Of a stretch of DNA of 64,000 nucleotides, positions 13,231-56,003 are shown one piece after another. Positions within the stretch are counted from its first letter, which is position 1; the number at the start of each line of letters is the position of its first letter. The stretch covers positions 197,034 to 261,033 of the forward strand of contig CAYJMP010000002.1 in the NCBI GenBank assembly GCA_964371625.1, written 5' to 3'. The DNA comes from an uncultured Ignavibacteria bacterium. Lineage in GTDB: Bacteria; Zixibacteria; MSB-5A5; WJJR01. The notes beneath the pieces are model-generated. The model ran no database searches, was not told the DNA's origin, and was given only the letters and a program-made list of their open reading frames with translations. The position numbers and the translations under genes are program-made.

Positions 13231-13256
13231 TGGATCACTTCACGCGCGAAGCGCGA

Positions 13257-13280: not shown

Positions 13281-13402
13281 TTGCCATAAGCACCTTGCCC
13301 TCGCCGGAGTGCAGCCGATTCGGTGTCGACCCTGAACGGCACAGGCACCTGCAGTGGCAGATCATGAAAATGTGAATTAGATTGCGTCGATTGTGCGCGG
13401 GC

Positions 13403-14926
13403 TCACGTCTCCAATTCGGGGATCGGGATTCCCCCGCTCTCATTGGGCTCGTAGACGACGCCGAGATAGTCTTCGGGATTGATCCCTTCGGCGCGAGAAT
13501 CGAGGACTGTGTCGATGTGCAGAAGCGACCCGGGATCGGATTCCTTCTTCTTGACCCGAAGCTCCTTGGCTTTACGCATCGGCGCTCCTTCCGCATCGCG
13601 AATGACGAGCACCTCCGGGGCATAGAGGTCGGCCGAGTCGTTCTTCGTCACAATAGCGACCGAGCCGTCGGACAATTTCACCACCGTGCCAATCGGGAAC
13701 ACGCCGACCACGTGGACAAACGCTTTGAGAATTAGCGGGTCGTACCATTCGCGGCCCTTGTATAGCAACCGCCGGATCGCCTCGTCAGGGCTGATCGTCT
13801 CTTTCTGATAAACTCGTCCCGAGGTCATGGCGTCAAAAGCGTCGCAGACGCTGATAATACGTGAAAACAAATGCAGCGTCCGCGGCCGTGAGAGCTTGGG
13901 GTATCCGGTGAGGTCCATCTTGAGGTGATGTTCGAACGCACCCGCAATCGACAAGCCCGTCTCGGCGTCGAGCGGGCGCATGCTGGCAATCGTGAGCGCC
14001 CCCAACGCCGGATGACGCTTCATCTGCTCCCAGTCATCATCGTTGAAATCTTCGGGCTTGGCGATAAGATCGCGTGACAGCTTGACCTTGCCGATATCAT
14101 GGAACAGCGCGGCCAATCCGAGACTCGCCAACCGTACTCTGTCCATCCCCAATCGCATCCCAACCGCGATCGAATATATGGCCACGTTGACCGAGTGATA
14201 GTAAGTGTATTCGTCGAAGTCCTTAAGTGTCGCAAACTCCAGCAGAATCTCTTCGTCGTGCGCGACTTCATCGATCATCTGGTGCACGACGCGCTGCACA
14301 GCACCTGCATCAAAGGAATTTCGGTCGCGGACTCGTTCCCAAAACTCCTGCACCACGGCTTCCGAACGCTGGAAGAGCGCCTGGGCACGGCGGCGCTTGA
14401 TCGTCGTCGGATCGACGTTCGGATCCATCTTGCGGGCGTCGAGGAACTCGCCCGGGTCTTTGGTTGCCAGGGGCGTAATCGTCACGCGGCCGATCCCAAC
14501 CGCTTTGAATGTCTCTTCCAGTGTCGCGAACGGATCGGTACAGCGGCGGTCGGTGCCGGCCAATGCGAACAACACCTGGTCGATCTCGCTGGCGGGCGCG
14601 TCGCGCGAAATCGTCAATCCGCCCAGACGCAATTCGGCAAACCGCGCGGCAAGCGAACGGCCAAAAGAGAACTCACGGTCGTAGTTGAGCCGCTCCCCGT
14701 TAAAGAAGATGTAGTCGTTCTGATACGTGATCTTGCAGTCGGCGCCGCTCTCGAACAACACTTGCAGCGCTTGGGCAAACTCCTCGCGCCGCGACCGAAA
14801 CGCGTTGTTGTTCTCATCGTACACAGCCGCCGCTCGCCAGGCCGCGTAGAACGTTCGCAGCGCGGTTGTCGCCAAGGCATAGTTGGCCGAACGGGTCGAT
14901 GAGGTCGGAGAAGAAGATTGCGTCAT
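13403..14926 (-). CDS. HD-GYP domain phosphohydrolase (putative c-di-GMP phosphodiesterase)
   Basis: HD motif LFHDIGK and GYP motif HHLKMDLTGYPK; start overlaps upstream gene stop in ATGA. Confidence 0.8.
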   Translation of the reverse strand: MTQSSSPTSSTRSANYALATTALRTFYAAWRAAAVYDENNNAFRSRREEFAQALQVLFESGADCKITYQNDYIFFNGERLNYDREFSFGRSLAARFAELRLGGLTISRDAPASEIDQVLFALAGTDRRCTDPFATLEETFKAVGIGRVTITPLATKDPGEFLDARKMDPNVDPTTIKRRRAQALFQRSEAVVQEFWERVRDRNSFDAGAVQRVVHQMIDEVAHDEEILLEFATLKDFDEYTYYHSVNVAIYSIAVGMRLGMDRVRLASLGLAALFHDIGKVKLSRDLIAKPEDFNDDDWEQMKRHPALGALTIASMRPLDAETGLSIAGAFEHHLKMDLTGYPKLSRPRTLHLFSRIISVCDAFDAMTSGRVYQKETISPDEAIRRLLYKGREWYDPLILKAFVHVVGVFPIGTVVKLSDGSVAIVTKNDSADLYAPEVLVIRDAEGAPMRKAKELRVKKKESDPGSLLHIDTVLDSRAEGINPEDYLGVVYEPNESGGIPIPELET

Positions 14927-16767: not shown

Positions 16768-16863
16768 CGAAGATCCCCGGCCGTCTCCCTGACAAGTGCC
16801 AACGGCACCACTATGGGGAGATTCCCATACTGGCTACGGAATGCAATTGACCGCCCCTGCCGG

Positions 16864-18450
16864 ATGAGGCGATCATGCCATTCTATGAGCCGGTGCTTTG
16901 GGGTCACTCTCGCGCTGCTTCTGCTCTTGTCTCCGTCCCTGTCCATGTCGGCCGGGTCGAGAGTGGAGGACATCCCGGTCGATTCTTGGGTCTACGACGC
17001 TCTCTTCGAGCTGTCCGCCCACGGCGATGTACCCCAACTGCTGCTGCACACGCGCCCCCTCTCACGCGGCGAAGTGGCCGATGCGCTGCGGGAATATCGA
17101 ACCCGACATAACACGCTCCTGCTAGGGACAGACATCATCCTTCGCCGCCTGGAAGCGGAATTCCATGAAGAGCTTGCCCCTGATGAGTCGATGATCGGCG
17201 ATCATCGCGTACGTCTCGGCGGCGGACCGACGGCGCGTGTCGATCAATTCCGACATTCAGTCGCCCGCAATCGCATCGGCTTCGACGCCATCGGTTCATT
17301 CACTGTCCTCGACGCCGTCGCAACCCGCCTCCGGGTCCGTTTCGATTCCGATGGTCGGTACGACTCGCAGTTTCACGGCAAGTACTGGAAAGAGAACTTC
17401 ACCGCCTGGGTCGAGCAGGCGGTCACGGTCGCGCGTTGGAAACGCTTCACCGCCGCCTTTGGCCGGGAGTACTGGCGCTGGGGCCCGTCTCGAGATGATG
17501 CCATGCTCATCTCCGACCACTCGCCGCCCTTCAATGGCCTGCGGCTGGCATACCGGGCGCGGAAGTGGGCCTACTCATTCCACGCGACCGTCCTCGATCG
17601 TGTGTTTGTCGCCGCGCAGGACTATGCCGGCGGAATCGGCCAGGAAGGACTGACCAACCGTTATCTCGTCGCCCATCGTCTCGATTGGCGTCCGCGTCAC
17701 AATCTTGAGCTTGCTGCCTCCGAAGTCATGCTCTTCGGCGGCTTTGATAGATCCTGGGAATGGAATTATTTGAACCCCGTCCTCCCTTACTATTGGGAGC
17801 AGCTCAACGACAACACCAACGACAACCCCCTCTGGAACCTCGAACTTTCGTGGCGCATCAGGGATGGGCTGCGAGTCTACGGCGAATGGATGATTGATGA
17901 TTTCCAGATCGACTTTCATTCCGAGCCGCAGCAAATCGGCATCCTTCTCGGCGGCGCTTGGATTCCGGGCGTGTTTGACGGCCGCCTGATGCTCAACGGC
18001 GAGTATCAACGGATCAACACATTCGTCTACGGCCAAGACCGCCCGTGGAATCGCTACTTCCATCACCGCGATCTCGAAGGCGAATCGATCGGCATCGGCG
18101 CAAGCCTCGGGCCCGACGCCGATCGGATCACCTTGACACCTCAGTACAGACTCAGCAAGGATCTCGATCTTGTCGGGCGCGTCAACTATCGGCGCCGGGG
18201 CGAGTATCGCCTGAGCGATCCACAAGCATCTGGCGTTCCCCACGGCACGCCGTTTCCCTCCGGGATTGTCGAACGCGAACTACAACTGGGAGCCGGGGCG
18301 CACCTTCGCTGGCAAGGGCAGATTGTCGCGGATGCGATGCTCGGGTACTATCGAATCGAGAATGTCGCCCATGTCCTGGACACCGATCTCGATGGACTCT
18401 TCTGCCAATTCAAACTCAATGTCCTCTGGTGGAAAACGTTCGGTGTCTGA
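16864..18450 (+). CDS. Secreted/outer-membrane protein, possibly Wzi-like (tentative)
   Basis: Start moved to internal ATG preceding signal peptide (MSRCFGVTLALLLLLSPSLSMSAG) because the 5' ORF extension overlaps the divergent HEAT gene; aromatic-rich beta-strand-like sequence ending ...WWKTFGV. Confidence 0.45.
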   Translation: MRRSCHSMSRCFGVTLALLLLLSPSLSMSAGSRVEDIPVDSWVYDALFELSAHGDVPQLLLHTRPLSRGEVADALREYRTRHNTLLLGTDIILRRLEAEFHEELAPDESMIGDHRVRLGGGPTARVDQFRHSVARNRIGFDAIGSFTVLDAVATRLRVRFDSDGRYDSQFHGKYWKENFTAWVEQAVTVARWKRFTAAFGREYWRWGPSRDDAMLISDHSPPFNGLRLAYRARKWAYSFHATVLDRVFVAAQDYAGGIGQEGLTNRYLVAHRLDWRPRHNLELAASEVMLFGGFDRSWEWNYLNPVLPYYWEQLNDNTNDNPLWNLELSWRIRDGLRVYGEWMIDDFQIDFHSEPQQIGILLGGAWIPGVFDGRLMLNGEYQRINTFVYGQDRPWNRYFHHRDLEGESIGIGASLGPDADRITLTPQYRLSKDLDLVGRVNYRRRGEYRLSDPQASGVPHGTPFPSGIVERELQLGAGAHLRWQGQIVADAMLGYYRIENVAHVLDTDLDGLFCQFKLNVLWWKTFGV

Positions 18451-32789: not shown

Positions 32790-33164
32790 ATGAAGATTTT
32801 CGTCGGAGGTTTGTCTTATGAAGTCACCGACGCCGCCCTGAAGGATCTGTTCACACCCTACGGAGCCGTGGAATCGGCCGCGGTTGTAACGGACCGTTAC
32901 AGCGGCCAACCGCGCGGCTTCGGATTTGTGGAAATGCCCACACGGAGCGAAGCGATTGCCGCCATCAGCGCGCTGTCCGGAACAGAACTGATGGGACGTA
33001 CCCTTGAAGTGAATGAAGCGCGCCCTCCCGTGGATCGTGGCGGACATCGTGGTGGCCCCCCTCGCGGTGGACGCGGTGGAGGCGACCGCGACCGGCGTGG
33101 CGGCGGTGGCGGTAAGCGCTCTGGCGGCGGTGGTGGTGGCCGCGACCGCGACCGACGCTACTAA
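32790..33164 (+). CDS. RRM-type RNA-binding protein with Gly/Arg-rich tail
   Basis: RNP motifs KIFVGGLSY and RGFGFVEM; RGG/GGGG-rich C-terminus; GAGGAG RBS. Confidence 0.8.
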   Translation: MKIFVGGLSYEVTDAALKDLFTPYGAVESAAVVTDRYSGQPRGFGFVEMPTRSEAIAAISALSGTELMGRTLEVNEARPPVDRGGHRGGPPRGGRGGGDRDRRGGGGGKRSGGGGGGRDRDRRY

Positions 33165-33410: not shown

Positions 33411-33611
33411 TTAGACCTTGCGCACATTCGCCGCTTGCGGACCCTTCGGGCCCTGCACAACGTCGAACTGCACCTGGTCGCCTTCGGCCAAGCTACGGAA
33501 TCCTTCCGCCTGGATGGCTTCGTGATGTACGAATACATCCTTGCCGCCCTCCTGCGAAATGAAACCATATCCCTTGGCATCGTTGAACCACTTGACGGTT
33601 CCTTGCGCCAT
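33411..33611 (-). CDS. Cold-shock protein (CspA family)
   Basis: [15 protein letters not shown] and VFVHH RNA-binding motifs; start at internal ATG ([10 protein letters not shown]). Confidence 0.85.
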
Positions 33612-34105
33612 GACACGTTCCTTTTGCTTCTGTGAACAAATCGGTGTCCACGGTCCGTTGGCCCCGACGGCCTGTGAAACCATTCGATCTTTTCTGCGAG
33701 TGCCGTCGGAGATGAACCGTGCGGTCAGTCTTTGGAAAAGTCAGTGGCTTCGTGCTACTGATCCTACAATACGGCAAATCCGGCAGAATATTAAGCGGTA
33801 TTTCCGATTATGCGCTCAAGCTCTTTCACTACAGCGTGTTACCAAACCGTTCCGTGATGCCCTCCAGGCAGCTCCGCTACGATTCGGACATGACGGGGAC
33901 CCTTTTCCGCTGGCCTTGGTTTAAATGGAAAGGTATCATGGTTCGAACATTCGTGGCATCCAACTAACAATCCAGCTTGCCACTTGGTCATTCCCGCGGG
34001 GGATGACTCCCGCGGGCTTGCTGTAAGACACAGACTCACACTCCACCCACCGATGTCGATTGTGGCAACGCTGGTCAGGGAGAGGAGCAATTATGGTCGT
34101 TACGC

Positions 34106-35734: not shown

Positions 35735-35980
35735 CATGTCGCATGACCGAGGTGTGACCCTGACGGCCTCGCAGGACTTCCGTAGGCAGCTCGAAGATCA
35801 CATAGAAGCCAAGACCCCGAACGGTACTTGGCGAAAAAGGGTCCGTATGCCTACATTCGCGAGGCATGGATGCGCGGGCGAGGGTCGCTCGGCGTTCGAG
35901 CCGTGCGAGTATAGACTCCGACGAGCCTTGATATCGATTTCCGCGCTCTTCGAACCTGGTGACCACCAAGGTACACAGCC

Positions 35981-38449
35981 ATGATCGAGCTACACGCCAA
36001 GATTAAGGAAGTCGCGGGGAAACCCGAGGGCCAGGTCCTTGTAAACATCAATTACGATATCATCAAACAGATGTCAGCGCAGCTTTACACGAATCCACGA
36101 AAGGCGATCGAGGAGCTGGTCTGCAATGGGTACGATGCTGGTGCAACCGAGTGTCATGTAAAACTGCCGCTGAATGAGTCCGATTCACTTGTCGTACTGG
36201 ACGACGGGGTCTCGATGGATCTCAATGGTCTCAGAGACCTTTGGATGGTAGCAAAGAGCCCAAAGTTGCCCGATCAGAATGGTCGAAGAGTTGGCAATAA
36301 CCGACTGCAAATAGGGAAGTTTGGTGTCGGCAAACTTGCCGCGTATGCTTTGGGCAGCCGATTGACTCATGTCGCTACCGTGGCAGGTGTGACAAGAGTC
36401 GTATCGGTTGGCGAAGATGAGATCAAAGAGCAACAAGGAGGTCGTGCTCCCAAATTCGAGGTCTACAAGATGCCAGAGTCGCAAGCGCGACAATACCTGG
36501 AACCTTACCTCGGTACCCTCCCCCGCCCATGGGATCGCGGATGGGACAGCTGGACCATCGCGGTGGTTGAGGGTGTAGAAAGCGGCAATATCGCTCGGGC
36601 TCTGAAGATCGGGATTCTCCGCAGGATGATCACGGCTGCGCTTCCGATTTCAAAGTCGTTCAAAGTCGTCCTCGAGGGAGAGACCGTCCCAATCCGAAAG
36701 ATCGAGCAAGCGGACATTGAACTCACGATTGACATTGGTGACGCAGAATTCCGCAAAAAACTTGAGTCAAATCTACGCGACTATTGGCAGAAACAGTTGT
36801 CGGCGACAACGCCGGAAGACGTGCCGGCCTCCTACTACAAACTCTCGAAGCAGAGAACGCCAGATCCTCTGGATGTAAGCAAAGAACTCAATGCAATCAA
36901 CGTGCCTCACTTGGGCCCAGTGGTAGGCAACGCCATACTTGCCAAGCACACCCTCACTACCGAGAAACTCGATGAGCGCGGGTATGTTAGCCACGGCTTC
37001 GCGGTTAAGGCGAATGGGAAATTAGTCAACCCGGAGGATGAACTGTTCGGGATATCTCCCCGGAGCCATGCGTATTGGAGACGATTCTTGGCGCGAGTCG
37101 AAATGCCGGGACTCGATGACGTTCTCTTGGTTCAACGAAATGCTGTCTCAGAAAAGAATCAGATGGCGCAAGTGGCACGTGAGGTATTGCGAACTCTTTT
37201 CGAGTACACTCGAACTCAATCCGAAGCAGCACTTGAGGCAGATGAGGTTCCACTAGAACCTTTCGGGTCAAAAGTTTCCAAAATTGCTCCGATGCTGGCT
37301 CCGTTGGCGCTTGAAGCGCTCAGCGGAGGAACTTTGCCTACAGACGGCCCAGCATCGGTGAAGATAGATTTCGTGACCCTCAAAGAAAGCAACTCTGCAG
37401 CTCAGTACGACGCGACTGATCATACAATTCAAGTAAACGTAGAGCATCCCATCATTGCTGCTCTCAATGACCTCCAGCGAGAGAATCAAAAACAATGGCG
37501 GAGAGTAATTGGCGAGATCGTGGCGGGCGGCAAGCTCGTGGAGGGACTTCTCATTGCGAGAGCGGTCAGGTCAGAAGTTATAAGTGAAGTTGAAGAGCTT
37601 CTGGATACAACACTACGCAGCGCTGCGAGCTTTATCCGTGACCCCGTAGAGGAGCATATCAGGGAGATCGATGAAGCTTCCTATGAGGGGGGAACCCGAT
37701 TCGAGAATGCAGTGGTAAATGCTCTGAGGAGTATGCGTCTAGTTGCATGGCACATTGGCGGTGCCGATAACCCAGATGGCATAGTTGAAATTCCAAGAGC
37801 TGGAGCGAAAAACCTCAGGATTTCTATCGAGGCTAAGGGGACGAAGGGAGTAATAACACACACAGAACTCAGCCAGGCTACTGTGGCTCGCCACGAAATG
37901 GAATCTGGCTGCACTTCCTCAGTGGCAATAGCACGAGAGTACCAAACCGAAGGTATTGGCGGCCAAGATAGTGGCTTAGTGCGGGAAACACAGGGAAAGC
38001 TCCCTCTACTGACGGTGTCCGCGATATCTAAGATGCTAAAGCTTCAACAGAAGCGACGGTTCACATATGACATGGTGGCCAAAATACTCACAATCTGGAC
38101 CGACCCGGAGGAGCTCGACGGCTTCGTGGAAGAGACATGGAGACAGCTGCCTGAGACTGGGCTAATGAGGCTGATTCTTGAGGTTGCGCATGACAAGATA
38201 GCAAACCACGAAGAAAACCTTCCCGATCCTGGTATGTTGGTTGATGATCCCCGTCTTGCTAAGCTAAAGATCAAGAAGGAGGCAGTCATTCATGTCCTGC
38301 AAGCAGTGGCCTTCACTACTAGAATGATAACCATACAGAATACGAGCAACTACGAATTCACGTTGAATGCGCCTGTGGAAACCATCCTCGACGCGATGAC
38401 CAAGGCCTCACAGGAGCAAATCGAGACGACGTCTAAATCTAAGTGTTGA
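35981..38449 (+). CDS. GHKL (MORC/HATPase_c_3-like) ATPase fused to a C-terminal PD-(D/E)xK-like nuclease motif
   Basis: Bergerat-fold motifs: N-box ELVCNGYDAGA, G1-like VLDDGVSMD, G2 GKFGVGKLAAYALG; C-terminal DNPDGIVEIP...LRISIEAKG resembles D...ExK; gene sits in a visibly AT-richer segment. Confidence 0.7.
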   Translation: MIELHAKIKEVAGKPEGQVLVNINYDIIKQMSAQLYTNPRKAIEELVCNGYDAGATECHVKLPLNESDSLVVLDDGVSMDLNGLRDLWMVAKSPKLPDQNGRRVGNNRLQIGKFGVGKLAAYALGSRLTHVATVAGVTRVVSVGEDEIKEQQGGRAPKFEVYKMPESQARQYLEPYLGTLPRPWDRGWDSWTIAVVEGVESGNIARALKIGILRRMITAALPISKSFKVVLEGETVPIRKIEQADIELTIDIGDAEFRKKLESNLRDYWQKQLSATTPEDVPASYYKLSKQRTPDPLDVSKELNAINVPHLGPVVGNAILAKHTLTTEKLDERGYVSHGFAVKANGKLVNPEDELFGISPRSHAYWRRFLARVEMPGLDDVLLVQRNAVSEKNQMAQVAREVLRTLFEYTRTQSEAALEADEVPLEPFGSKVSKIAPMLAPLALEALSGGTLPTDGPASVKIDFVTLKESNSAAQYDATDHTIQVNVEHPIIAALNDLQRENQKQWRRVIGEIVAGGKLVEGLLIARAVRSEVISEVEELLDTTLRSAASFIRDPVEEHIREIDEASYEGGTRFENAVVNALRSMRLVAWHIGGADNPDGIVEIPRAGAKNLRISIEAKGTKGVITHTELSQATVARHEMESGCTSSVAIAREYQTEGIGGQDSGLVRETQGKLPLLTVSAISKMLKLQQKRRFTYDMVAKILTIWTDPEELDGFVEETWRQLPETGLMRLILEVAHDKIANHEENLPDPGMLVDDPRLAKLKIKKEAVIHVLQAVAFTTRMITIQNTSNYEFTLNAPVETILDAMTKASQEQIETTSKSKC

Positions 38450-38460
38450 GAATTGGGTCA

Positions 38461-39828
38461 ATGGCCGCAAGATGTAGCAGTTCCCAATCAATCATGATAG
38501 ACGATCAGACAATTCAAGACGCGGACATGTTGCGATGGAATCAGTCTCACGGATTTCGCTTCACACACGACCTCTTCAAGTTTCCTGGGAAATTCCACCC
38601 TCCGTTAGTAGAGCACATCTTGCGTTCGATGAACCCTGCGGGTGTCATTGACCCCATGGCCGGTGTCGGAACGGTTGCTGTGGAGGCGAAGGCGGCCGGC
38701 GTCCCATCGCTCTCGCTGGATATCGATCCGGTGAGTACGTTTTTTGCACGGGTTAAGACTACTCCTATTGCACGGCGAACGCTGGACTGTGCTTGGAAGG
38801 ATCTCTCAAAGTCCTTACGCCGCTTTCGCAGAACGGACAACGAGATCGAGATTCGCAAATTTCGCGACTTGAGAGTCGATCGAATGCGCGGGCAGCTATC
38901 CACAGTGAATGCAAGTGATCTCGAAAGTCTGAGTTACTGGTTTCGCCGGTATGTCCTAGTCGACTATGCGAGGATCGACCATTCCATTTCCAATGGGGGG
39001 CTCCCCGGGAGATCGGAGATTGTGCGTCGATTCTTCCTAGCGTGCCTGATCAGTTCGATCCGCCGCATTAGCCTAGCGGATCCAAGTCCTGTGAGCGGCC
39101 TTGAAATTACGAAACACATGAGGGCTCGCATTGAGTGCGGGTACTTAGTCGATGTGTTTCGAGAGTTTGAGCGCCGCGTTGAGATTGCAATCCGGAGAAT
39201 GGATGAGTACGAATCGTACCTTAAGCAGTGCGGAACATATGACACTCCATCGCTGATTGAACAGACAGACTGCAGTAACTTGCTTGAATCAGCCGGTGCA
39301 CGGAAGATTGGTGCAGACCTGATTCTCTTCTCGCCACCGTATTGCAACGCAATCGAATACTGGCGACGACACAGATTAGAATATCTACTCGGGCGATTCC
39401 TTGACGAGAGAGAAATCTGCGAGCTTCACGCAAGCTTCATTGGTCGTACCAAAGTCGGGTCGACCAATGAATTTCCCCAAATGCTCGGTTATGTACCCGT
39501 TGACCGATTACTCTCCAGTCTAATCAAGGACGGAAGGCGGAAGAAGGCTCGAGTATTATCGCAATACTTTATCGACATGAGGGACCGACTACAGGTGTTT
39601 CGCGATTTTCTGCCCGTCGGTGGGTTCTGCGTTCTGGTTGTTGGGGACAGCGTAACCGGTGCGAAGAGAATACCGACCGCAAAGACTCTTGCGTGGATAG
39701 GTGCTGACTTGGGTTTTGATCATCTCAAGACAACGCGCTATAAAATCAAGAATAGAGTCATGCAATTTCCAATCAAATCGAATGCAAAGATCGAAAGTGA
39801 ATCGATCCTTGTTCTACAAAAAGTCTGA
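38461..39828 (+). CDS. SAM-dependent DNA methyltransferase (N6-adenine or N4-cytosine type)
   Basis: Motif I DPMAGVGTVAVEA and motif IV LILFSPPY; ORF overlaps or abuts the upstream GHKL gene stop (earliest GTG at 38443, ATG at 38461). Confidence 0.75.
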   Translation: MAARCSSSQSIMIDDQTIQDADMLRWNQSHGFRFTHDLFKFPGKFHPPLVEHILRSMNPAGVIDPMAGVGTVAVEAKAAGVPSLSLDIDPVSTFFARVKTTPIARRTLDCAWKDLSKSLRRFRRTDNEIEIRKFRDLRVDRMRGQLSTVNASDLESLSYWFRRYVLVDYARIDHSISNGGLPGRSEIVRRFFLACLISSIRRISLADPSPVSGLEITKHMRARIECGYLVDVFREFERRVEIAIRRMDEYESYLKQCGTYDTPSLIEQTDCSNLLESAGARKIGADLILFSPPYCNAIEYWRRHRLEYLLGRFLDEREICELHASFIGRTKVGSTNEFPQMLGYVPVDRLLSSLIKDGRRKKARVLSQYFIDMRDRLQVFRDFLPVGGFCVLVVGDSVTGAKRIPTAKTLAWIGADLGFDHLKTTRYKIKNRVMQFPIKSNAKIESESILVLQKV

Positions 39829-40020
39829 AACTGGGTGCGCGTGCGCTCCGCGCTCCACCAAGTTCGCCAGATTTGCCTACAAAGACCTGATCGAAAACGT
39901 ACCTTGCTGTGGCCTCAAGTTTGAGGTGCCAAAATGATACCTCAAGTCGTGACGGGGCGCGTCCTGATGGACACCCGCTAACCCCTTGCCCCCGCCCCCA
40001 TTCCTCCCAATCTTGTCCCT

Positions 40021-47566: not shown

Positions 47567-49198
47567 TTAGAATTGCAGGCTCATTCCCGCTTCCAACCTG
47601 TGCCCGCGCGTGTCGTCCCCGCCACTCAACTGACCGAGAGCATTGAGCGCGAGTGCCTGGGTAATTCCAACCCGGACTGTCAGATCCGCGCGTCGATTCA
47701 GACGGGCGTCGGAATTGCCTGCGAGAGTGTAACTGTACAGTCCCGCGCCAAGGCTGATCCAGTCGCGTTGACCAACACCCTGTCCCAAGGATGCGTTGAG
47801 ATTGTAACCGGAGGTGGCATCGCTCACGAAACGGACCCCCTGCACGCTGAAACTGCTCTTGGGGTTGAAAAGACCCTGCTTGCGCACGGCGCCATTGTAT
47901 GAGGTTGTCCGGTCCTGCTCTCCTTCCACTGAACGCACACCCGCACCGGCGGACAGATAGATCCCTTCCGGCAAGGCAAGATCGAATTGCGTCCGGACAC
48001 CCTGACGCACACGATCATCAAAGATGCTGTCGGCGATATCACGCGTCTCGTAGGTCCGGTAGCTCTTACGTGTGTCGTAGGACACCGACGCGGTGAGACT
48101 GCGCGTGAGATTCACCCGCCCCTGTGCGTAGATCGTCGAGAGACTGATTGACTGACTGTTTTCACTCTTGCGCCAGCCGCGATTGACATCAAGCTCGAGG
48201 CTGTGACTGAGGTTCCAACGGCCATTGCGTGCCATGCGGCCTTGGGCGAACAGCGCCTCGCGGCTCGCCGTCCCGCCATGGTACTGCCCGACGACGGAAA
48301 ACGTCTGATCCAGCAGGAAGTCGCGCGCCGACCCGCGCCGGTAACCAGCATACGCGCCGTAAGTCTGAAGATTCGGGCGATTCTCTGCGTACTGCCATTG
48401 CGAATTGGCTCCACCGAAAATCCCGATGCGCGCGAATTGCGAAACACGATACTCAATGGAACCGCCATCCAGCCGGCCGATGGCGCCCACGCGTGCTGGA
48501 TTGATTCGACCCATCGACATCCCTGCCCGCGAACCTTCGGGTTTGTACTCCAAAACGAAAGTCGCAATGCGACTCTCCCAAGAGTTCTCACGACCATCAT
48601 CACTGGGAACAACACGGCGATCCCGTCTCCCCGACGTTCGAAGGGCGAATGACAGCCCCGGCGTCCAGAGTGGCTCGACGCGGAGATCGATATCGACCCG
48701 CCCCTGGCCGAAATCCAGCCCGGCATCGCTGTGATCGTCCCAGTTGCTGTACATCATCGCAATTGAGCCAGATGCCTCCGGATGGATCGCCGGACCATCA
48801 TTGACGCGGGATTCGACGGGATCTACTCGTTGAATCTGGGAGAGCGCTTCTGCGGTTGACTGGGGAGCTGGTTCGGAGGTATCTGGCACGGCACGAAGCT
48901 CAACGTTGAGCTTGACGACATCACCTACCGATAGACTCACAACGGGTTCAGGCATCCGGCACGCCGAAGAGTGTTCTGCCAGATGGAGCACCTCGAGTTC
49001 GGCGATTTTCTGATCGTCACGGAATACCACGGGTCTCGCCCCGACAAACAGTCCTTCCGCCCTGCCCCCATTCAGATACACCAGGTCCGCGGAAACAAAT
49101 GTCACCTTGAGCACACGCTCGATGGTTTCCGCGCAGACCACAGACGCAGACAACAGGAGTATCGCGACGCAAATCGAGACGGCGACAAGAGATCTCAC
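47567..49198 (-). CDS. Outer-membrane beta-barrel protein (putative porin partner of the cytochromes)
   Basis: Signal peptide; alternating aromatic/hydrophilic beta-strand pattern; C-terminal ...GMSLQF with terminal Phe; GTG start overlaps cytochrome stop (GTGA). Confidence 0.6.
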   Translation of the reverse strand: MRSLVAVSICVAILLLSASVVCAETIERVLKVTFVSADLVYLNGGRAEGLFVGARPVVFRDDQKIAELEVLHLAEHSSACRMPEPVVSLSVGDVVKLNVELRAVPDTSEPAPQSTAEALSQIQRVDPVESRVNDGPAIHPEASGSIAMMYSNWDDHSDAGLDFGQGRVDIDLRVEPLWTPGLSFALRTSGRRDRRVVPSDDGRENSWESRIATFVLEYKPEGSRAGMSMGRINPARVGAIGRLDGGSIEYRVSQFARIGIFGGANSQWQYAENRPNLQTYGAYAGYRRGSARDFLLDQTFSVVGQYHGGTASREALFAQGRMARNGRWNLSHSLELDVNRGWRKSENSQSISLSTIYAQGRVNLTRSLTASVSYDTRKSYRTYETRDIADSIFDDRVRQGVRTQFDLALPEGIYLSAGAGVRSVEGEQDRTTSYNGAVRKQGLFNPKSSFSVQGVRFVSDATSGYNLNASLGQGVGQRDWISLGAGLYSYTLAGNSDARLNRRADLTVRVGITQALALNALGQLSGGDDTRGHRLEAGMSLQF

Positions 49199-52100
49199 TC
49201 GTCCCCCCGCGGGTGGCAGCTATAACACGCTGCGCTGAGGTACTGATACCCGTTTACTTCGTTGTGGTCGTCGTCCGTGTCAGTCCTGTTGTGCTCGTGG
49301 CAGAGGATGCACTCGAAGGTGGCGAAACTGGCCGAGTTGACGTGGCAGTCGGCGCAGTCATTCCACTTGTCTTTGTGTTTACCTGAGTAGATCGGGAAGT
49401 ATTGCGAATCGTGATTCCAATTGGCCGGAGTCCAGGCGGTCGTCGTATGGCATGTCTGGCACGTTGTCGGAAATCCTGCCGCCGCGTGATCGGGCGTCGC
49501 CGTGCTGTAATCGCTGCTGTGGCAGGCGAAGCACTCCGAGGACGTCCCGCTGTACCCTGATGCGTGGCAACTGTTGCACGTCACGGTCCGATGCGCACCG
49601 GTCAGCGGGAACCCCGTCTGATTGTGATCATAGGTCGCGGGTGTCCATGCGGTCGTCGTATGACACACTGTGCACTGAGTCGAGAAACCCGCGGTCACGT
49701 GATTGGGATCGGTGACACCGGTGTAATCGCTTTCATGACACGCCAGACATGCGGTCGGAGTGCCTGAGTACCCGATCGAGTGGCAGCTGTTGCATGTCAC
49801 CGTGATATGCGCGCCGGTCAATGGGAACGCGGACTGATTGTGATCGAATGACGCCGGTGTCCAGCCGCTCGTTGTGTGACACTGTTCGCAGAGTGTCGGG
49901 AAACCCGAGCTGACGTGATTCGGATCACTCGCTCCGGTGAAATCATCATGATGACAAGCATCGCATGCCGATGGCGTCCCGGTGTATCCCGCTGCGTGAC
50001 AGCTCGCGCAGGTCGTCGATGTGTGCGCTCCCGTCAACGGAAATCCGCTCAGGTTGTGATCGAAGGACGATGGTGTCCAAGCCGTCGTCGTGTGACACTG
50101 CTCACAGAGAGTTGGAAATCCCCCGGTGACGTGATTGGGGTCGGTGACTCCCGAATAATCACTCGAGTGGCAGGCGTAACACGCAGATGATGTTCCCGCG
50201 AATCCGGTTGAATGACAGCTGTTGCAGGTCACGCTCTGATGCGCTCCGGTCAGCGTGAATCCGGTCTGCGTGTGTGACCACGTCGATGGGTCCCAACTCG
50301 ACGTGTTGTGGCATTGCGTGCAGGTGGTCGAGAACCCCGCCGCCGTGTGATTGGGATCGGTGACGCCAGTGAAGTCGGCATGATGGCAGGCATCGCACTC
50401 GGTTGGTGTTCCCGTATATCCACTCGCGTGGCAACTGACGCATGTGACCGAGCGATGTGCTCCGGTCAACGCGAATCCACTGAGATTGTGATCGAAGGAT
50501 GATGGTGTCCACGCCGTCGTCGTGTGGCATTGCTCACAGAGTGTGGGGAATCCTCCGGAGACGTGGTTGGGGTCGGTGACCCCGGTGTAGTCGCTTGCGT
50601 GACAGGCGTAGCACGCCGCGGCAGTCCCCGCGAAGCCGGTGGAATGACAACTGTTACACGTGACACTTTGATGTGCTCCGGTCAGTGTGAACCCGGTTTG
50701 CGTATGCGACCAACTCGACGGGTCCCAATTCGACGTGCTATGGCACTGCACGCAGTTCGTGGAGAATGCCGCCAATGAGTGATTGGGATCGGACGCGCCG
50801 GTGAAATCACTGTGGTGACAGGCATCGCACTGCGTCGGTGTCCCGGTGTACCCACTCGCGTGACACTTGACGCATGTGATCGTCCGGTGTGCACCGGTCA
50901 GGGCGAATCCGGTTAAGTTATGATCCAATGTCGCAGGCGTCCAGCCGGCGGAAGTATGGCATTGGGCACAGGCTGTTGAGAATCCTGCGCTGATGTGATT
51001 CGGGTCGATCACGGCCAGGTAATCGGCGTGATGGCAGGCATCGCATTGCGTTGGTGTGCCCGCATACCCGGATGTATGACAGCTCGCACAGGAAACCGCG
51101 GTGTGTAGTCCTGTCAGTGCAAAACCTGTGGTGCTGTGGTTGAAAGTCGCCGGCTCCCAGGCAGACGTTCCATGGCATTGCGCGCAGTCGGTCGGAAAAC
51201 CCGAATGAGAGGGATCGTCCGCTTGCGTGAAATCGGTCTCATGGCAGGCGATGCACGCCGAGGCTGTCCCCGTGTACCCGGTCGTGTGGCATTGATTGCA
51301 CGCCACCGCCAAGTGCGCGCCGGTCAATGGGAATCCGGTCAGGTTATGATCGAGAGTCGCCGGCTCCCATGCCGCGGTTGTGTGGCATTGTGTGCATTCG
51401 GTCGGAAACCCGTTCGCTGCGTGACCCGGGTCGTCCGTGTTGGTGTAATCGGATTCATGGCAAGCGAAGCAGGCCGACGGTGTCCCGGTATACCCTGAGG
51501 CATGGCAATTATTACAGCTGACAGAGACGTGAGCGCCCGTGAGCGGGAATCCTGTCAGATTGTGATCGAGAGTGGCAGGAGTCCACGCCGTCGTGGTGTG
51601 GCACTGAGTGCACTCGGTTCCAAAACCGGCCGCCACGTGGTCCGGATCATCGACACCTGTGTAATCCGGCTCATGACAGGCGAGGCAGGCTGACGGTGTA
51701 CCCGTGAATCCCGAGGTATGGCAATTGTTGCATGAGACAGCGATATGGGCGCCAGTCAACGGGAAGTCGGATAGATTGTGATCCCAATCGGCCGTCTCCC
51801 ACGCCGACGTCGCGTGACATGTCGCACAGTCTGTAGAGAAATGCGAACCGTCATGATCGGGGTCGGCGGCGCCTGTGTAGTCAGTGGCATGGCAGGCATA
51901 GCATAGAGTCGAAGTTCCGGTGAAACCTGATTGGTGACAATCGTTACAGGCCGCAGCCACATGCGCACCCGTCAACGGGAAATCCGTCAGGTCGTGATCA
52001 ATGTCGGCCGGCTCCCATGCGGATGTCGTGTGACACTCCGCGCACTCGGTGGAGAAATCCGAAGCGACGTGATTGGGATCGACCGCCCCAGTGAAATCAC

Positions 52101-54321
52101 TCTGGTGGCACGCCAGGCATTCCGATGATGTACCGGTGTAGCCCGATGTGTGACAATTCTCGCACGTCACTGAGACATGCGCGCCCGTTAACGGGAAGGC
52201 CGTCAGATCGTGATCGAGATTGGCCGGTTTCCAAGCCGATGTCGTGTGACAGAGGGCGCACTCCGTCGGGAACCCCGCCGCCGCATGATCCGGATCCGGA
52301 GCCGCAGCATAATCGCTGCTGTGGCACGCATTGCATGTCAATTCTGTCCCCGTATATCCACTCGTGTGGCAATTCTCGCAAGTGACGCTCACATGCGCAC
52401 CCGTGAGCGGGAATCCGGTCAGGTTGTGATCGAGATTGGCCGGATCCCACGCCGAAGTGGTATGGCACTGCGCGCATTTTGTCGGGAAGCCGGCGGTGAC
52501 GTGATTGGGATCGGCCGCCAGCATGTAGTCGCTTTCATGGCATGCCACGCACTCGGATTGAGTTCCAGTGTATCCCGAAGCGTGGCAGTTCACACAGGAC
52601 ACTGCCGCGTGCGCGCCCGTCAGTGAGAACCCCGTGAGATCGTGATCAAGATTCGCCGGTGTCCAGGCCTCGGTCGTGTGACATTCCGAGCATTCAGTCG
52701 AGAATCCGGCAGCCGCATGATCCGGGTCGGGTGCGTTGGCATAGTCGTCACCGTGGCATGCGAGGCACGTGGACTGCGCTCCTGTGTACCCGCTGGCGTG
52801 GCAATTCTCGCACGTCACGCTCGCGTGGGCGCCGGTGAGCGGAAATCCCGTGAGATCATGATCGAGATTGGCCGGCCGCCAGCCTGCTGTTGTGTGGCAT
52901 TGCGTGCATTCAGTTGAGAATCCCGCCGTGACGTGGTTGGGATCTGCTGCTGTTGTGTAGTCCCCTTCATGGCAGGCAACACACGCAGTTGCCGTCCCCG
53001 TGAAACCCTCCGAATGGCAATTGTTGCAGGTCACCTCGACATGCACCCCGGTCAGCGGGAACCCAGTCATGTCGTGATCGAGATTCGCCGGAGTCCAACC
53101 GGATGTCGAATGGCACCCGGCGCACTCAGTTGAAAACCCTGCCGCGAGATGGTTCGGATCTGGCGTCGTACTATAATCGTTTTCATGGCAAGCGTAGCAG
53201 TCCGACGACGTGCCAGTATATCCTGATGTATGGCAGTTTTCGCAAGTGACGGCGACGTGTGCCCCGGTGAGCGGGAAATGTGTCAGGTCGTGATCGAGAT
53301 TCGCCGGCGCCCAGTCCTCCGTGCTATGGCAGAGCACACACTCCGTAGGGAATCCGGCCGTCTGGTGATTCGGATCTTCGGCGGTCGCGTAGTCGCTCTC
53401 ATGACAACCCGCACAGGTCGAAGCCGTGCCGGAGAATCCTTCAGTATGGCAACTGTTGCATGTCACCTCGACATGCGCACCCGTGAGCGGAAACGTCGTC
53501 AGATTATGATCGAGTTCGGCCGGAATCCAGGCAACCGTGGTGTGGCACTGGACACACTGTGTCGCAAATCCCGCTGTCACATGGTCCGGGTCGGGTGTCT
53601 CGCGGAACTCAGTTTCATGACAGGCAAAGCAGTCGGTCGAGGTGCCAGCAAATGCGGTCGCATGGCAACTATTGCATGACAAGGCCGCGTGTGCGTTTGT
53701 GAGTGGAAATGTCGCTGGGTGATCGTATACCGCGCTCGCCCAAGTGAGCGCTCCCGCTCCATGACACGACTCGCATTCCTGTGAGAATCCCGCCAAAGCA
53801 TGCTCGGGATTCGTGGCAGCCTGATAGTCGCCACTGTGGCATGAGGCGCATGCCGTCGAAGTCCCCGCGTATTCGCGCGGCATCTGATTCACATGGCAAG
53901 CGCCGCAATCGGCGATGGCGTGCGCGCCGGTAAGCGCGAAGCCCTTCTGCGCATGTTGTTCGAAGACTTCGCGATTGTTCTTCCAGTTTTCCGGGGTGTG
54001 GCAGGTTTGGCACTCGGTCCCTAGCTGGCCGCGATGGACATCGGCGTGGCAATCGGCGCAGGCCGATGCGGTCTCCACAAATTTGAGATCCTGGTGGCAG
54101 GTCGCGCACCGCGTCTTGGCGTGGACTCCAACCAGCGGAAAGCCCGTCTCCCCATGCGCAAATCCCGATGGCTGACGCATGTCCGTCCATGACTTCATCG
54201 TGTGGCACTGCTGACAATCCCAACGAATCTCCCCGTGCGGATTCAGGATCATCGTCTGTGCCGCCACGCTGACACAGAGGAGAGCAACCAGGACAGCTGC
54301 GAGGGCAAGAGTGCGCTTCAT
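49195..54321 (-). CDS. Giant multihaem cytochrome c (~70 CxxCH motifs by manual count)
   Basis: Signal peptide MKRTLALAAVLVALLCVSVAAQ; about 20 tandem ~56-aa modules each carrying three CxxCH; start ATG overlaps upstream cytochrome stop (ATGA at 54318-54321). Confidence 0.85.
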   Translation of the reverse strand: MKRTLALAAVLVALLCVSVAAQTMILNPHGEIRWDCQQCHTMKSWTDMRQPSGFAHGETGFPLVGVHAKTRCATCHQDLKFVETASACADCHADVHRGQLGTECQTCHTPENWKNNREVFEQHAQKGFALTGAHAIADCGACHVNQMPREYAGTSTACASCHSGDYQAATNPEHALAGFSQECESCHGAGALTWASAVYDHPATFPLTNAHAALSCNSCHATAFAGTSTDCFACHETEFRETPDPDHVTAGFATQCVQCHTTVAWIPAELDHNLTTFPLTGAHVEVTCNSCHTEGFSGTASTCAGCHESDYATAEDPNHQTAGFPTECVLCHSTEDWAPANLDHDLTHFPLTGAHVAVTCENCHTSGYTGTSSDCYACHENDYSTTPDPNHLAAGFSTECAGCHSTSGWTPANLDHDMTGFPLTGVHVEVTCNNCHSEGFTGTATACVACHEGDYTTAADPNHVTAGFSTECTQCHTTAGWRPANLDHDLTGFPLTGAHASVTCENCHASGYTGAQSTCLACHGDDYANAPDPDHAAAGFSTECSECHTTEAWTPANLDHDLTGFSLTGAHAAVSCVNCHASGYTGTQSECVACHESDYMLAADPNHVTAGFPTKCAQCHTTSAWDPANLDHNLTGFPLTGAHVSVTCENCHTSGYTGTELTCNACHSSDYAAAPDPDHAAAGFPTECALCHTTSAWKPANLDHDLTAFPLTGAHVSVTCENCHTSGYTGTSSECLACHQSDFTGAVDPNHVASDFSTECAECHTTSAWEPADIDHDLTDFPLTGAHVAAACNDCHQSGFTGTSTLCYACHATDYTGAADPDHDGSHFSTDCATCHATSAWETADWDHNLSDFPLTGAHIAVSCNNCHTSGFTGTPSACLACHEPDYTGVDDPDHVAAGFGTECTQCHTTTAWTPATLDHNLTGFPLTGAHVSVSCNNCHASGYTGTPSACFACHESDYTNTDDPGHAANGFPTECTQCHTTAAWEPATLDHNLTGFPLTGAHLAVACNQCHTTGYTGTASACIACHETDFTQADDPSHSGFPTDCAQCHGTSAWEPATFNHSTTGFALTGLHTAVSCASCHTSGYAGTPTQCDACHHADYLAVIDPNHISAGFSTACAQCHTSAGWTPATLDHNLTGFALTGAHRTITCVKCHASGYTGTPTQCDACHHSDFTGASDPNHSLAAFSTNCVQCHSTSNWDPSSWSHTQTGFTLTGAHQSVTCNSCHSTGFAGTAAACYACHASDYTGVTDPNHVSGGFPTLCEQCHTTTAWTPSSFDHNLSGFALTGAHRSVTCVSCHASGYTGTPTECDACHHADFTGVTDPNHTAAGFSTTCTQCHNTSSWDPSTWSHTQTGFTLTGAHQSVTCNSCHSTGFAGTSSACYACHSSDYSGVTDPNHVTGGFPTLCEQCHTTTAWTPSSFDHNLSGFPLTGAHTSTTCASCHAAGYTGTPSACDACHHDDFTGASDPNHVSSGFPTLCEQCHTTSGWTPASFDHNQSAFPLTGAHITVTCNSCHSIGYSGTPTACLACHESDYTGVTDPNHVTAGFSTQCTVCHTTTAWTPATYDHNQTGFPLTGAHRTVTCNSCHASGYSGTSSECFACHSSDYSTATPDHAAAGFPTTCQTCHTTTAWTPANWNHDSQYFPIYSGKHKDKWNDCADCHVNSASFATFECILCHEHNRTDTDDDHNEVNGYQYLSAACYSCHPRGDE

Positions 54322-56003
54322 GGCGTCGCCCCCTTGGCTGTCACACTGTCTGTCCCGTGGCAGGCGCGACAACTCCTGTCATCAATATGATAGTCCACAA
54401 ACGCGAAAGCGGCGTCCTGGGTGGGCTTATGACAGCCAGCGCAAGGCACCTTGGCGTGCGCGCCGTCGAGCGGGTATTCAGTTAGCTTGTTGTGATCAAA
54501 GAGCGTGGCCTGCCAATTTGAAGGCGTGTGGCAGCGGTCGCATCGGATTTGTGGCACCGTATCGGCAACCGCAAACTGACCACGGTGCACATCGCGGTGG
54601 CACATCTCGCAATCACGACGCAACGGTGCGAACGCAAGCCGGGCAATGTCCACGGCATTCGAATCGCCGCGGTGGCATGATGCGCAATTGACAGACGCAT
54701 GCTTTCCCGTCAAGGCGAAACCAGTGCTGTCGTGCGCAAACACAACCGCGGACCAGCTTGCTTCCGAATGACATTCTTGGCACCCGGAGCGCTCGACGAT
54801 CCGTGCTAACTGACCCTTGTGGACATCCTTGTGACAATCCTGACAGCGCATTGACGACCACGTGTAATGCCCCTCACGCGCCACCATGTTTCCTTTAGCA
54901 TCGCCATGGCACTGAACACACGGCAAGGCCAAGTGCGCCTGGCGTAACGTGAATCGCGTGGCCTTATGTTGTTCGATGGTGAATTGTGCAGGCATATACC
55001 CGGCGACAGTGTGGCACTCTTCACACGCGCCGCCCTGCGCCCGGTCGGCGAACTCGCCTTTGTGATGGTCCTGATGACAATCACGACAGGCTTGGAATTT
55101 CAGGCCGCTCTTGGGTTTGCCAGCCGCATGGCATTTGTCGCAGGCAACTATCCTGTGACGTCCTTCCAGCGGATAACGGGTTTTGCTGTGATCGAATCCC
55201 GCTTGCTCCGCGACCTGCCACCCTGTCGTCGTATGGCATCCCTCGCACCGCGATCCGAGACGCCCCGCGTGGGAATCCTTATGGCAGTTGCTGCAATTCT
55301 CGTGTCGCACATTGGCAAAACGCGAGTACTCGTGATCGGTCGTCGAACTCGGATCTTCGACTTTCTGATGACATTTGGCGCAGGCCGTCGTCTCGTGGCG
55401 GCCGGTCAGAACGAACTTCGTCCGGTCATGATCGAACCCAGGCGCCGGTGACCATCCCTCAAATGTGTGACAGCGATTACAGTCCGAAGCCAGCTGGCCA
55501 CGGTGCTCGTCGAAATGACAGGACGCACAACTCGTATCCAAACCGAGGTAAGTCTTGGAGAGGTCTTTCTGTCGGAGTCGGAGCTGCTCGCTATCCCGAT
55601 TGAAGTCGGTCTTGTGGCAGGCACGGCACGTCGTCTTCGCATGCTTTCCTTGAAGCGGGTAGCCTGCAAGTTGGTGATCGAAACCCTTTTCACCGGCCTT
55701 CCAGTAGATCAAGTCGAAATCACGCCCATGGTGTTCCACGTGGCAGTTCTCACATTCCCGATACTCGGCCTGCGCGTGCAACCCGCGTCCGCGATCGATG
55801 CGCGCCTGCATCTCGGTGTGACAGCTGAGACACTTGCCGTGCATCTGATCCGAATCCCGATCATGGCACTTGTTGCAGTTCTCGACACCGTCCAAAAAGG
55901 CGTGGGAACGATGCAGATCGCCCGGCGACAGTTGCGCGTTCGCTCTTTGGCAGAGTGTGGCCATCATGATAAATCCGACGATCTGTGCCAGCCCGCGAGG
56001 CAT
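54318..56003 (-). CDS. Multihaem cytochrome c (~20 CxxCH motifs)
   Basis: Internal ATG with signal peptide MPRGLAQIVGFIMMATLCQRANA; about 20 CxxCH counted. Confidence 0.85.
   Translation of the reverse strand: MPRGLAQIVGFIMMATLCQRANAQLSPGDLHRSHAFLDGVENCNKCHDRDSDQMHGKCLSCHTEMQARIDRGRGLHAQAEYRECENCHVEHHGRDFDLIYWKAGEKGFDHQLAGYPLQGKHAKTTCRACHKTDFNRDSEQLRLRQKDLSKTYLGLDTSCASCHFDEHRGQLASDCNRCHTFEGWSPAPGFDHDRTKFVLTGRHETTACAKCHQKVEDPSSTTDHEYSRFANVRHENCSNCHKDSHAGRLGSRCEGCHTTTGWQVAEQAGFDHSKTRYPLEGRHRIVACDKCHAAGKPKSGLKFQACRDCHQDHHKGEFADRAQGGACEECHTVAGYMPAQFTIEQHKATRFTLRQAHLALPCVQCHGDAKGNMVAREGHYTWSSMRCQDCHKDVHKGQLARIVERSGCQECHSEASWSAVVFAHDSTGFALTGKHASVNCASCHRGDSNAVDIARLAFAPLRRDCEMCHRDVHRGQFAVADTVPQIRCDRCHTPSNWQATLFDHNKLTEYPLDGAHAKVPCAGCHKPTQDAAFAFVDYHIDDRSCRACHGTDSVTAKGATP

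Follow-up and report, generated by a model that had tools for sequence, protein, structure and literature searches.

We analyzed a stretch of 64,000 nucleotides from contig CAYJMP010000002.1 of an uncultured Ignavibacteria bacterium (assembly GCA_964371625.1), hereafter called the window, and focused on two adjacent open reading frames (ORFs) of its forward strand, ORF A (35981..38449) and ORF B (38443..39828). According to our in silico analysis, these two genes, which make up a horizontally acquired cassette, form, with a probability of about 0.68, a mobile, operon-encoded restriction-modification (R-M) system. ORF A encodes a protein of 822 amino acids (aa) that joins a MORC-like GHKL ATPase to a predicted PD-(D/E)xK nuclease and is a putative restriction subunit, while ORF B encodes a probable DNA amino-methyltransferase. 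The analysis established the identities of the domains, the conservation of the catalytic residues, the conservation of the gene pair and the foreign base composition of the locus.

A first-pass annotation of the window had placed here an 822-aa ORF followed by an overlapping or abutting one, and both were found where it had put them. Two start codons are possible for ORF B. The window ORF listing uses a GTG at 38443, which gives 461 aa and overlaps the stop codon of ORF A by 7 nucleotides (nt), and the public gene call uses the ATG at 38461, which gives 455 aa (P0121, 100% identical). ORF A and ORF B therefore either overlap by 7 nt or lie 11 nt apart. The exact ORF A protein is also present in the public collection (P0241; 31 contigs in all), but the homologue search did not return it as a 100% match because its 90%-identity cluster is represented by a fragment of 233 aa.

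ORF A carries a conserved GHKL ATPase module

All coordinates of ORF A and ORF B features refer to the forward strand. The GHKL (Bergerat-fold) ATP-binding domain covers approximately aa 1-200 of ORF A (35981..36580), and Pfam assigns aa 39-153 to HATPase_c_3 (E 1.8e-13, 51.1 bits against a cutoff of 25), the family that the first-pass annotation had expected. The three Bergerat motifs that it had read in the sequence are real, and they proved to be invariant in an alignment of 45 family sequences. All 45 share E44/E45 and N49 of motif I (ELVCNGYDAGA; core residues E45/N49, N49 codon at 36125-36127), D74 and G76 of motif II (VLDDGVSMD; D74xG76, 36200-36208) and the G112-K-F-G115-x-G117-K string of motif III (GKFGVGKLA; G112-G117, 36314-36331), as well as T192, a candidate motif IV. 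ORF A thus has motifs I, II and III, present and conserved, as members of the GHKL superfamily do. This conservation supports ATP binding, ATP hydrolysis and N-terminal dimerisation as probable properties of the protein. The N-terminal matches to the NCBIfam sacsin and BbrUII models also fall in the GHKL region, and the REase_II models of PADLOC match only the first ~125 residues.

In the predicted structure of ORF A (predicted local distance difference test, pLDDT, 82.5), the GHKL domain is followed by an S5-like transducer, or middle, domain at approximately aa 201-390 (36581..37150; boundaries approximate). The nearest structures to this GHKL+S5 arrangement were MORC proteins. Sequence searches favored Hsp90 and sacsin over MORC, and searches of the PDB with either the single sequence or a profile gave the Hsp90 N-terminal domain as the only match. 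We therefore describe ORF A as MORC-like and do not claim that it belongs to MORC proper. Beyond the transducer, the model places a helical linker with a small beta unit at approximately aa 391-552 (37151..37636), in which the long helices span aa 394-421, 500-526 and 531-552; we found no family assignment for this linker.

A FokI/HindIII-like nuclease domain is predicted in the C-terminal half of ORF A

The first-pass annotation had also proposed a nuclease with a D...ExK arrangement. This part of its reading was borne out by invariant residues and by the modelled core fold, and no profile matched the window protein itself. The putative PD-(D/E)xK domain covers approximately aa 553-700 (37637..38080), and the model shows the alpha-beta-beta-beta-alpha-beta core characteristic of this fold at approximately aa 571-651. 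The candidate catalytic residues are arranged along this core: E575 (37703-37705) lies on the first helix, P598-D599 of the DNPDG motif (37772-37777) opens the second strand, and E617-A-K619 of the ISIEAKG motif (E617, 37829-37831; K619, 37835-37837) lies on the third strand. Three of them, E575, D599 and E617, do not vary in the family alignment (45/45), and K619 is kept in 44 of the 45 sequences.

Relatives at 23-27% identity have the same architecture with the motif P(D/E)G...DAK, a FokI-type D-x-K variant that resembles the D-T-K motif of FokI. Mrr_cat was matched by 6 of the 45 relatives (best 1.3e-4), and a few gave faint matches to FokI_cleav_dom. Taking FokI and BspD6I, Type IIS enzymes with a separable cleavage domain, and HindIII as the comparison class, we assign the nuclease of ORF A, on its predicted fold and invariant residues, as probably FokI/HindIII-like with one active site per chain. 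The remaining part of the protein, approximately aa 701-822 (38081..38446), is predicted to form a helical and winged-helix region. This candidate DNA-binding or recognition module probably contributes to DNA binding.

ORF B resembles Type II DNA amino-methyltransferases

ORF B had been read as a DNA methyltransferase on the basis of the motifs DPMAGVGT and FSPPY, and this reading holds. Motif I (DPMAGVGT) lies at 38650-38673 and motif IV (SPPY) at 39331-39342, and in an alignment of 44 ORF B homologues DPxxGxGT, D-I-D-P and S-P-P-Y are invariant or nearly so. Pfam gave a weak match to motif I alone. Nineteen Type II methyltransferase models of PADLOC match the protein, the best of them (MTase_II PDLC03322, E 2.9e-35) over nearly its full length. 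A database search returned 178 homologues, many of which carry matches to PF01555 (N6_N4_Mtase); a sequence search of the PDB with ORF B gave nothing significant.

The model of ORF B (pLDDT 89.1, predicted template modelling score 0.89) is a Rossmann-fold methyltransferase with a helical insert of ~160 residues at approximately aa 100-260, between beta-2 and beta-4 and thus between motifs I-III and motif IV. In alpha-class DNA methylases, the insert at this position is the target-recognition domain, and we presume the same role for the insert of ORF B. The protein therefore has motif I, motif IV and a target-recognition insert between them, in the alpha-like order of an amino-methyltransferase.

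Plasmid-borne full-length relatives (20-27% identity) are annotated as site-specific DNA methyltransferases, and two of these directly adjoin restriction endonucleases of the MvaI/BcnI family. ORF B aligns with both of the MvaI/BcnI-linked methylases from motif I to the C-terminus (pairwise E 4e-19 and 2e-21), with SPPY in common. SPPY is shared by most bacterial N4-cytosine methyltransferases and DPPY or NPPY is the form of N6-adenine enzymes (PMC8885841). The invariant SPPY makes N4-methylcytosine (4mC) the likeliest product of ORF B, while some of its distant relatives are annotated as adenine methylases. Altogether, motifs and model point to a Type II-like DNA amino-methyltransferase, with DNA as its probable substrate.

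The gene pair is conserved in bacteria and archaea

A database search with ORF A returned 304 homologues from bacteria and archaea, many of them full length, at 40-68% identity. An exhaustive profile search (E <= 1e-30, 1.84 billion representatives) gave 410 clusters at 50% identity, nearly all of 800-900 aa. When the contigs of 100,044 species-representative genomes were searched, 11 loci were found, so that the taxonomic census of the family is thin. The ORF A family is coherent, moderately large, sporadic and mobile.

We examined 20 distinct loci of ORF A relatives. In 14 of them (L001, L002/3, L004, L006/7, L008, which is the source genome, L009, L014-L017, L019 and L024-L026), a methylase of the ORF B family lies immediately downstream on the same strand, mostly abutting or overlapping. 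ATPase identity in these paired loci ranges from 24% to 68%, and Euryarchaeota and Nitrososphaerales are among their hosts. Furthermore, about 34 of the top 120 matches of each protein had a longest contig of the same size. The pair thus consists of separate, adjacent and co-inherited restriction and methyltransferase genes, as is expected of a Type II system. Integrases, resolvases or transposases adjoin it in at least 7 loci (L001, L002, L004, L006, L024, L025 and L026), and in several loci further R-M or defence genes lie close by, among them a Type I R-M system and Dam in L006. The survey of homologue neighborhoods that the first-pass annotation had called for was therefore favorable: pairing in 14/20 loci, in bacteria as well as archaea and often near integrases or transposases, supports the logic of an R-M system.

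Two of these neighborhoods have features of their own. The L004 locus, from a euryarchaeal metagenome-assembled genome (MAG), carries next to the cassette (13088-17932) a gene cluster for HerA/DUF87 ATPases and for ThiF (E1-like), UQ_con (E2-like), a ubiquitin-like protein and a JAB deubiquitinase. The cluster resembles a defence system based on ubiquitin-like conjugation, set in an archaeal defence island. In L019 (5938-8596; Armatimonadota MAG), two overlapping ORFs of 624 and 323 aa take the place of a single ATPase-nuclease gene, and an intact methylase gene follows downstream. Either the restriction gene has suffered a frameshift and the methylase was retained, a combination that is frequent in decaying R-M systems, or the assembly is in error here.

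The cassette is a compositionally foreign insertion among housekeeping genes

The two genes lie in an AT-richer island, as the first-pass annotation had noticed by eye. The G+C content (GC) of the island is 0.5125 compared to 0.5857 for the remainder of the window, which corresponds to z = -10 against 262 windows of the same size, among which the minimum was 0.5686. GC at third codon positions is 0.55, compared to 0.65-0.74 in five flanking genes. On the right side of the island, GC is back to 0.57-0.58 from ~39.5-40 kb. Tetranucleotide deviation also peaks at the island; since a comparable deviation is shown by two large repetitive genes located elsewhere in the window, GC is the cleaner signal of foreignness. 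These genes, 49195-54372 (reverse strand, 1725 aa) and 57455-63985 (reverse strand, 2176 aa), have tetranucleotide distances of ~0.30-0.33 and normal GC. The 1725-aa ORF has faint multihaem cytochrome matches (Cytochrom_CIII, MtrC/MtrF-like) in the public gene table, and both may encode giant repetitive extracellular electron-transfer or surface proteins.

According to the first-pass annotation, the island lies between a radical-SAM gene and lptB, with no integrase or transposase in view. The downstream neighbor is indeed an ABC_tran ATPase consistent with LptB and is followed by homologues of YbbR, TsaD and NadC. For the upstream neighbor, the assignment is weaker: it has a CxxxCxxC motif and sub-threshold Pfam matches to B12-binding and Radical_SAM. 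We found no integrase or transposase within ~10 kb of the island, no tRNA at the island (the sole tRNA found was tRNA-Gln at 19786) and no meaningful direct or inverted repeats flanking 35.7-40.0 kb. In an empty-site comparison, the island was present at the same place in all 23 assemblies that carry an identical LptB (23/23), and the insertion point is therefore not definable. The cassette is thus a fixed, compositionally foreign insertion among housekeeping genes.

The intergenic region upstream of ORF A (35735..35980, forward strand, 246 nt; sequence read directly) is the presumed promoter region of the operon, a role assigned purely from its position. On the other side, the intergenic region 39829..40020 (forward strand) separates ORF B from the LptB-like ABC ATPase gene and forms the right edge of the low-GC island. 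Promoter and terminator scans around the cassette gave nothing above the shuffled expectation, and no convincing terminator was seen downstream.

A short way upstream of the radical-SAM-like gene, a gene for an RRM_1 RNA-binding protein whose tail is rich in Gly and Arg (32790-33164, forward strand) adjoins one for a cold-shock CSD protein (33411-33683, reverse strand). RRM proteins are uncommon in bacteria; this gene pair appears ordinary.

A possible mechanism based on an ATP-gated clamp

GHKL+S5 modules, as found in MORC, MutL, Hsp90 and type II topoisomerases, form dimers via their N-termini once ATP is bound. A nuclease domain of the FokI type contributes a single active site per chain, and two such domains have to come together for a double-strand cut, as is established for FokI. 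These two properties together lead to a model of ATP-gated cleavage. In this model, ORF B would methylate a specific DNA motif and thereby mark host DNA. ORF A, as the restriction subunit, would bind target DNA that lacks the methyl mark, with recognition supplied by the winged-helix region and possibly by the linker. On ATP binding, the GHKL N-terminal gate would close into a dimer, as in MORC, MutL and Hsp90, and the closed clamp would entrap or loop the DNA and juxtapose the two single-site nuclease domains. A double-strand cut would then occur solely when ORF A is licensed on unmodified DNA, and ATP hydrolysis would reset the clamp. ATP-driven N-terminal dimerisation of GHKL+S5 modules is cited for the phage-defence protein VcSduA (PMC12137116).

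We put forward this dimerisation mechanism tentatively, by analogy with these proteins. We likewise infer DNA as the methylation substrate, the modified base, protection by methylation, ATP dependence and dimerisation-gated cleavage. The self/non-self module proposed in the first-pass annotation is supported as far as computation allows, by motifs, pairing and composition, with host protection and restriction of unmodified DNA as the functions that these features suggest. None of the outcomes that the first-pass annotation had listed as refuting its reading was observed.

Type II enzymes cleave unmethylated DNA sequence-specifically, within or close to their recognition site, are blocked by cognate methylation and use Mg2+ as their sole cofactor. 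The intact GHKL ATPase of ORF A suggests an involvement of ATP, which would be atypical for Type II. It is possible, though we would not yet favor it, that the family constitutes a distinct ATP-dependent restriction class, in which a MORC-type GHKL clamp reads methylation and licenses a FokI-type nuclease.

Arguments against the restriction-modification reading and alternative explanations

Several observations weigh against an R-M system. PADLOC run on the pair gave generic REase_II and MTase_II matches and no complete catalogued system beyond these models. In the nuclease region of the window ORF A, there was no Pfam match even at E <= 10 and no match to a PADLOC nuclease model. An hhalign comparison with the FokI cleavage domain put the motifs in register without reaching significance (E 0.039, probability 1.3%). 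The family is known from its genes and predicted structures, through which the R-M role is proposed, and the ATP-gated dimerisation is drawn from analogy. Finally, 6 of the 20 loci (L005/L011, L012, L020, L013, L010 and L018) have no adjoining ORF B-type methylase, and in some methylase-less loci the nuclease motifs are intact. Lethality would be expected of a classical restriction enzyme that lacks its methylase, except where a methylase is encoded elsewhere or the enzyme is licensed in another way.

These six loci are of different kinds. L010, a 5-kb contig, and L018 have no methylase nearby. Three are haloarchaeal (L005 1686-7898, also seen as L011; L012 1526-5813; L020 2427-6854), with ORF A homologues of 35-42% identity in Halogranum, Halovivax and a Salarchaeum plasmid. 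In L005/L011 and L012, the homologue is oriented divergently from a superfamily 2 (SF2; ResIII/SNF2) helicase and an AAA_23 SMC-like ATPase, and L005 also contains a 'DNA_S_mod_dnd_assoc_4' protein and small genes, including a dCMP-deaminase-like one. A DNA methylase is encoded 3-5 kb upstream in L005 (N6_N4_Mtase) and in L020 ("DNA methyltransferase", ~3 kb). The haloarchaeal arrangement may be a separate multi-gene defence system that recruited the same ATPase-nuclease. In L013 (3815-11017; Halorubrum lipolyticum), a 776-aa N6_Mtase/Eco57I-type methylase, unrelated to ORF B, lies downstream, a KAP-family P-loop NTPase lies upstream and an integrase is nearby; this methylase is a non-orthologous replacement and not a loss. 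The ORF A homologue of L013 is 34% identical and is not conserved at the positions of D599, E617 and K619. With such a degenerate nuclease site, L013 may represent a variant whose nuclease is dead or replaced.

The lack of an adjoining ORF B-type methylase in L005/L011, L010, L012, L018 and L020 fits an explanation in which ORF A, as a Shedu-like immune nuclease comparable to VcSduA/paraMORC3, regulates itself, and the methylase does not provide its self-protection mark. The GHKL clamp would then sense an infection cue, for example free DNA ends or phage proteins, and ORF B could, for instance, be an orphan or epigenetic methylase that acts independently and shares the mobile cassette. VcSduA shows that a protein with GHKL and PD-(D/E)xK domains can defend by itself (PMC12137116), and Shedu genes are found embedded in R-M loci (Gu et al., bioRxiv 10.1101/2023.08.10.552793). 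Against this stand the tight and deeply conserved operon linkage of ORF A with a methylase and the absence of DUF4263, and we consider such a self-regulated nuclease unlikely. A cassette that is an inactive relic, that is, a domesticated or decaying R-M system, appears less likely again. The locus has no mobility genes, the island is fixed in all assemblies seen and the nuclease motif is degenerate in one relative (L013, Halorubrum); in the window copy, however, both ORFs are full length, the ATPase, nuclease and methylase motifs are all intact and the operon arrangement has been kept.

The remaining explanations would give the pair a different biochemical task, and we regard both as very improbable. 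One is a module for methyl-directed repair or nicking, comparable to MutL/MutH/Dam or Vsr/Dcm: the methylase would mark the parental strand, and the MutL-like ATPase-nuclease would nick the unmethylated one where there are lesions or mismatches. Its sporadic occurrence (11 loci among the 100,044 species-representative genomes), its association elsewhere with integrases, transposases and defence islands, its foreign composition in the source genome and the FokI/HindIII type of the nuclease all argue against such a module, to which, moreover, no MutS-like or mismatch-sensing partner is linked. The other is that ORF B is an RNA (tRNA or rRNA) N2-guanine methyltransferase and that the pair is toxin-antitoxin-like or RNA-targeting. 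This is hard to reconcile with the 19 REBASE-derived Type II methyltransferase profiles that match ORF B (best 2.9e-35), with the PF01555 matches of many homologues and with the full-length homologues next to MvaI/BcnI-family enzymes, which bear the annotation site-specific DNA methyltransferase; the argument from these relatives is one of context. The RNA-binding domains of Trm11 and Trm14, THUMP or other, are missing from ORF B, which carries its 160-residue helical insert where alpha-class DNA methylases have the target-recognition domain; its partner ORF A has a DNA nuclease fold. An R-M system thus remains our preferred reading of the two genes.

Significance of the cassette

According to a prediction of 2008, GHKL/MORC-like ATPases are ancestral R-M components and gave rise to the eukaryotic MORC chromatin silencers. 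The cassette offers a compact experimental entry to the long-standing question of what a GHKL/MORC ATPase does in R-M. It brings together four parts in two genes: a MORC-like ATPase, a predicted single-site FokI/HindIII-type nuclease, a winged-helix region and a dedicated, probable-4mC methylase. Both proteins are confidently modelled and ~410 clusters are available for covariation analysis and engineering. The system could show how methylation sensing is coupled to cleavage through an ATP-gated clamp, and it might yield a new ATP-switchable nuclease scaffold. If the family were indeed an ATP-dependent class, it would be a tractable prokaryotic model of the ancestral MORC mechanism, linking ATP-driven DNA entrapment to an epigenetic mark, and it would explain the role of GHKL in HgiDII-like enzymes, a question open since 2008. 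For annotation, the labels 'ATP-binding protein' and 'hypothetical protein' hide an R-M family that is not captured by Pfam, NCBIfam or PADLOC.

Comparison with known systems

The first-pass annotation knew of no characterised defence system with this architecture, which is too strong: paraMORC3, R.VeiORF1182P, R.HgiDII and VcSduA are on record. Iyer, Abhiman & Aravind (2008) described the prokaryotic MORCs and paraMORC1-5 as GHKL+S5 ATPases of R-M operons, assigned a C-terminal nuclease of the restriction-endonuclease fold to paraMORC3 and proposed that DNA is looped between recognition and cleavage sites (PMC2292703). ORF A shares with these proteins, and above all with paraMORC3, the N-terminal GHKL and S5 domains, the C-terminal E-D-ExK nuclease, the linkage to DNA methylases and a sporadic, laterally mobile distribution in bacteria and archaea, with a predicted role in R-M. 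By now, paraMORC3 has been identified with the DUF4263 (Shedu) type of nuclease, and its gene often stands alone; ORF A, in contrast, has no DUF4263 signal and a predicted FokI/HindIII-like nuclease. Compared by description, ORF A is coupled to an M.MvaI-like amino-methylase, in contrast to the SF2 helicases, Vsr and Dcm emphasised for paraMORCs in 2008. The ORF A family is thus a distinct, uncurated family of the kind predicted in 2008 and partly validated by its cousins. A full-text literature search, with most subscription journals outside its coverage, returned no experimental study of the mechanism of a methylase-coupled GHKL restriction enzyme.

VcSduA, which is equated with paraMORC3 (Shedu type I-D), combines GHKL with a DUF4263 nuclease, and both sets of residues are needed for phage defence (PMC12137116). 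Like ORF A, it carries a GHKL ATPase, a clamp-like middle domain and a PD-(D/E)xK nuclease in one polypeptide. It differs by its DUF4263 nuclease and by acting alone, without a methylase, while ORF A exceeds it in length (822 aa), having in addition a linker and a winged-helix region, and is paired with a methylase. We rejected a Shedu/DUF4263 assignment of ORF A, which matched no DUF4263 or SduA profile; Shedu is a single-gene system, and an ORF B-type methylase lies directly downstream in 14/20 loci. Tiamat (TmtA) was likewise rejected, with no profile match for ORF A and a weak match on the GHKL region of one relative.

Orlowski & Bujnicki (2008) listed five Type II subfamilies of REBASE with an N-terminal GHKL domain, including the active enzyme R.HgiDII; another of them, R.VeiORF1182P, combines the GHKL domain with a PD-(D/E)XK C-terminus (PMC2441816). 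R.HgiDII and R.BbrUII resemble our pair in being two-gene R-M systems whose restriction subunit opens with a GHKL domain, and for HgiDII and BbrUII restriction activity is established. The putative R.VeiORF1182P is likened to ORF A by description, through the PD-(D/E)XK domain at its end. Membership of ORF A in the BbrUII/HgiDII family (NF050001) was rejected, with 47.8 bits against a cutoff of 550 and an alignment limited to aa 22-168 against positions 4-149 of the 659 of the profile. For HgiDII, the fold of the C-terminal domain is unassigned, and the partner methylase is a 5-methylcytosine (m5C) enzyme (PMC5867850).

At the level of the single partners, ORF B resembles the amino-methyltransferases associated with MvaI and BcnI over its full length (22-23% identity), with motif I, the YWF segment, SPPY, the helical insert and a size of ~450 aa in common. 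Their partner enzymes are entirely different: MvaI and BcnI have ~240 aa, compared to the 822-aa ATPase-nuclease ORF A. FokI needs no nucleotide cofactor for its transient dimerisation, and its DNA recognition relies on three N-terminal subdomains of winged-helix type. ORF A would have an ATPase clamp in place of these recognition subdomains, and at the sequence level its resemblance to FokI does not reach significance. Through its GHKL clamp, the proposed class would also differ from the Type I, Type III and ISP enzymes, which use SF2 translocases, and from the McrB GTPase.

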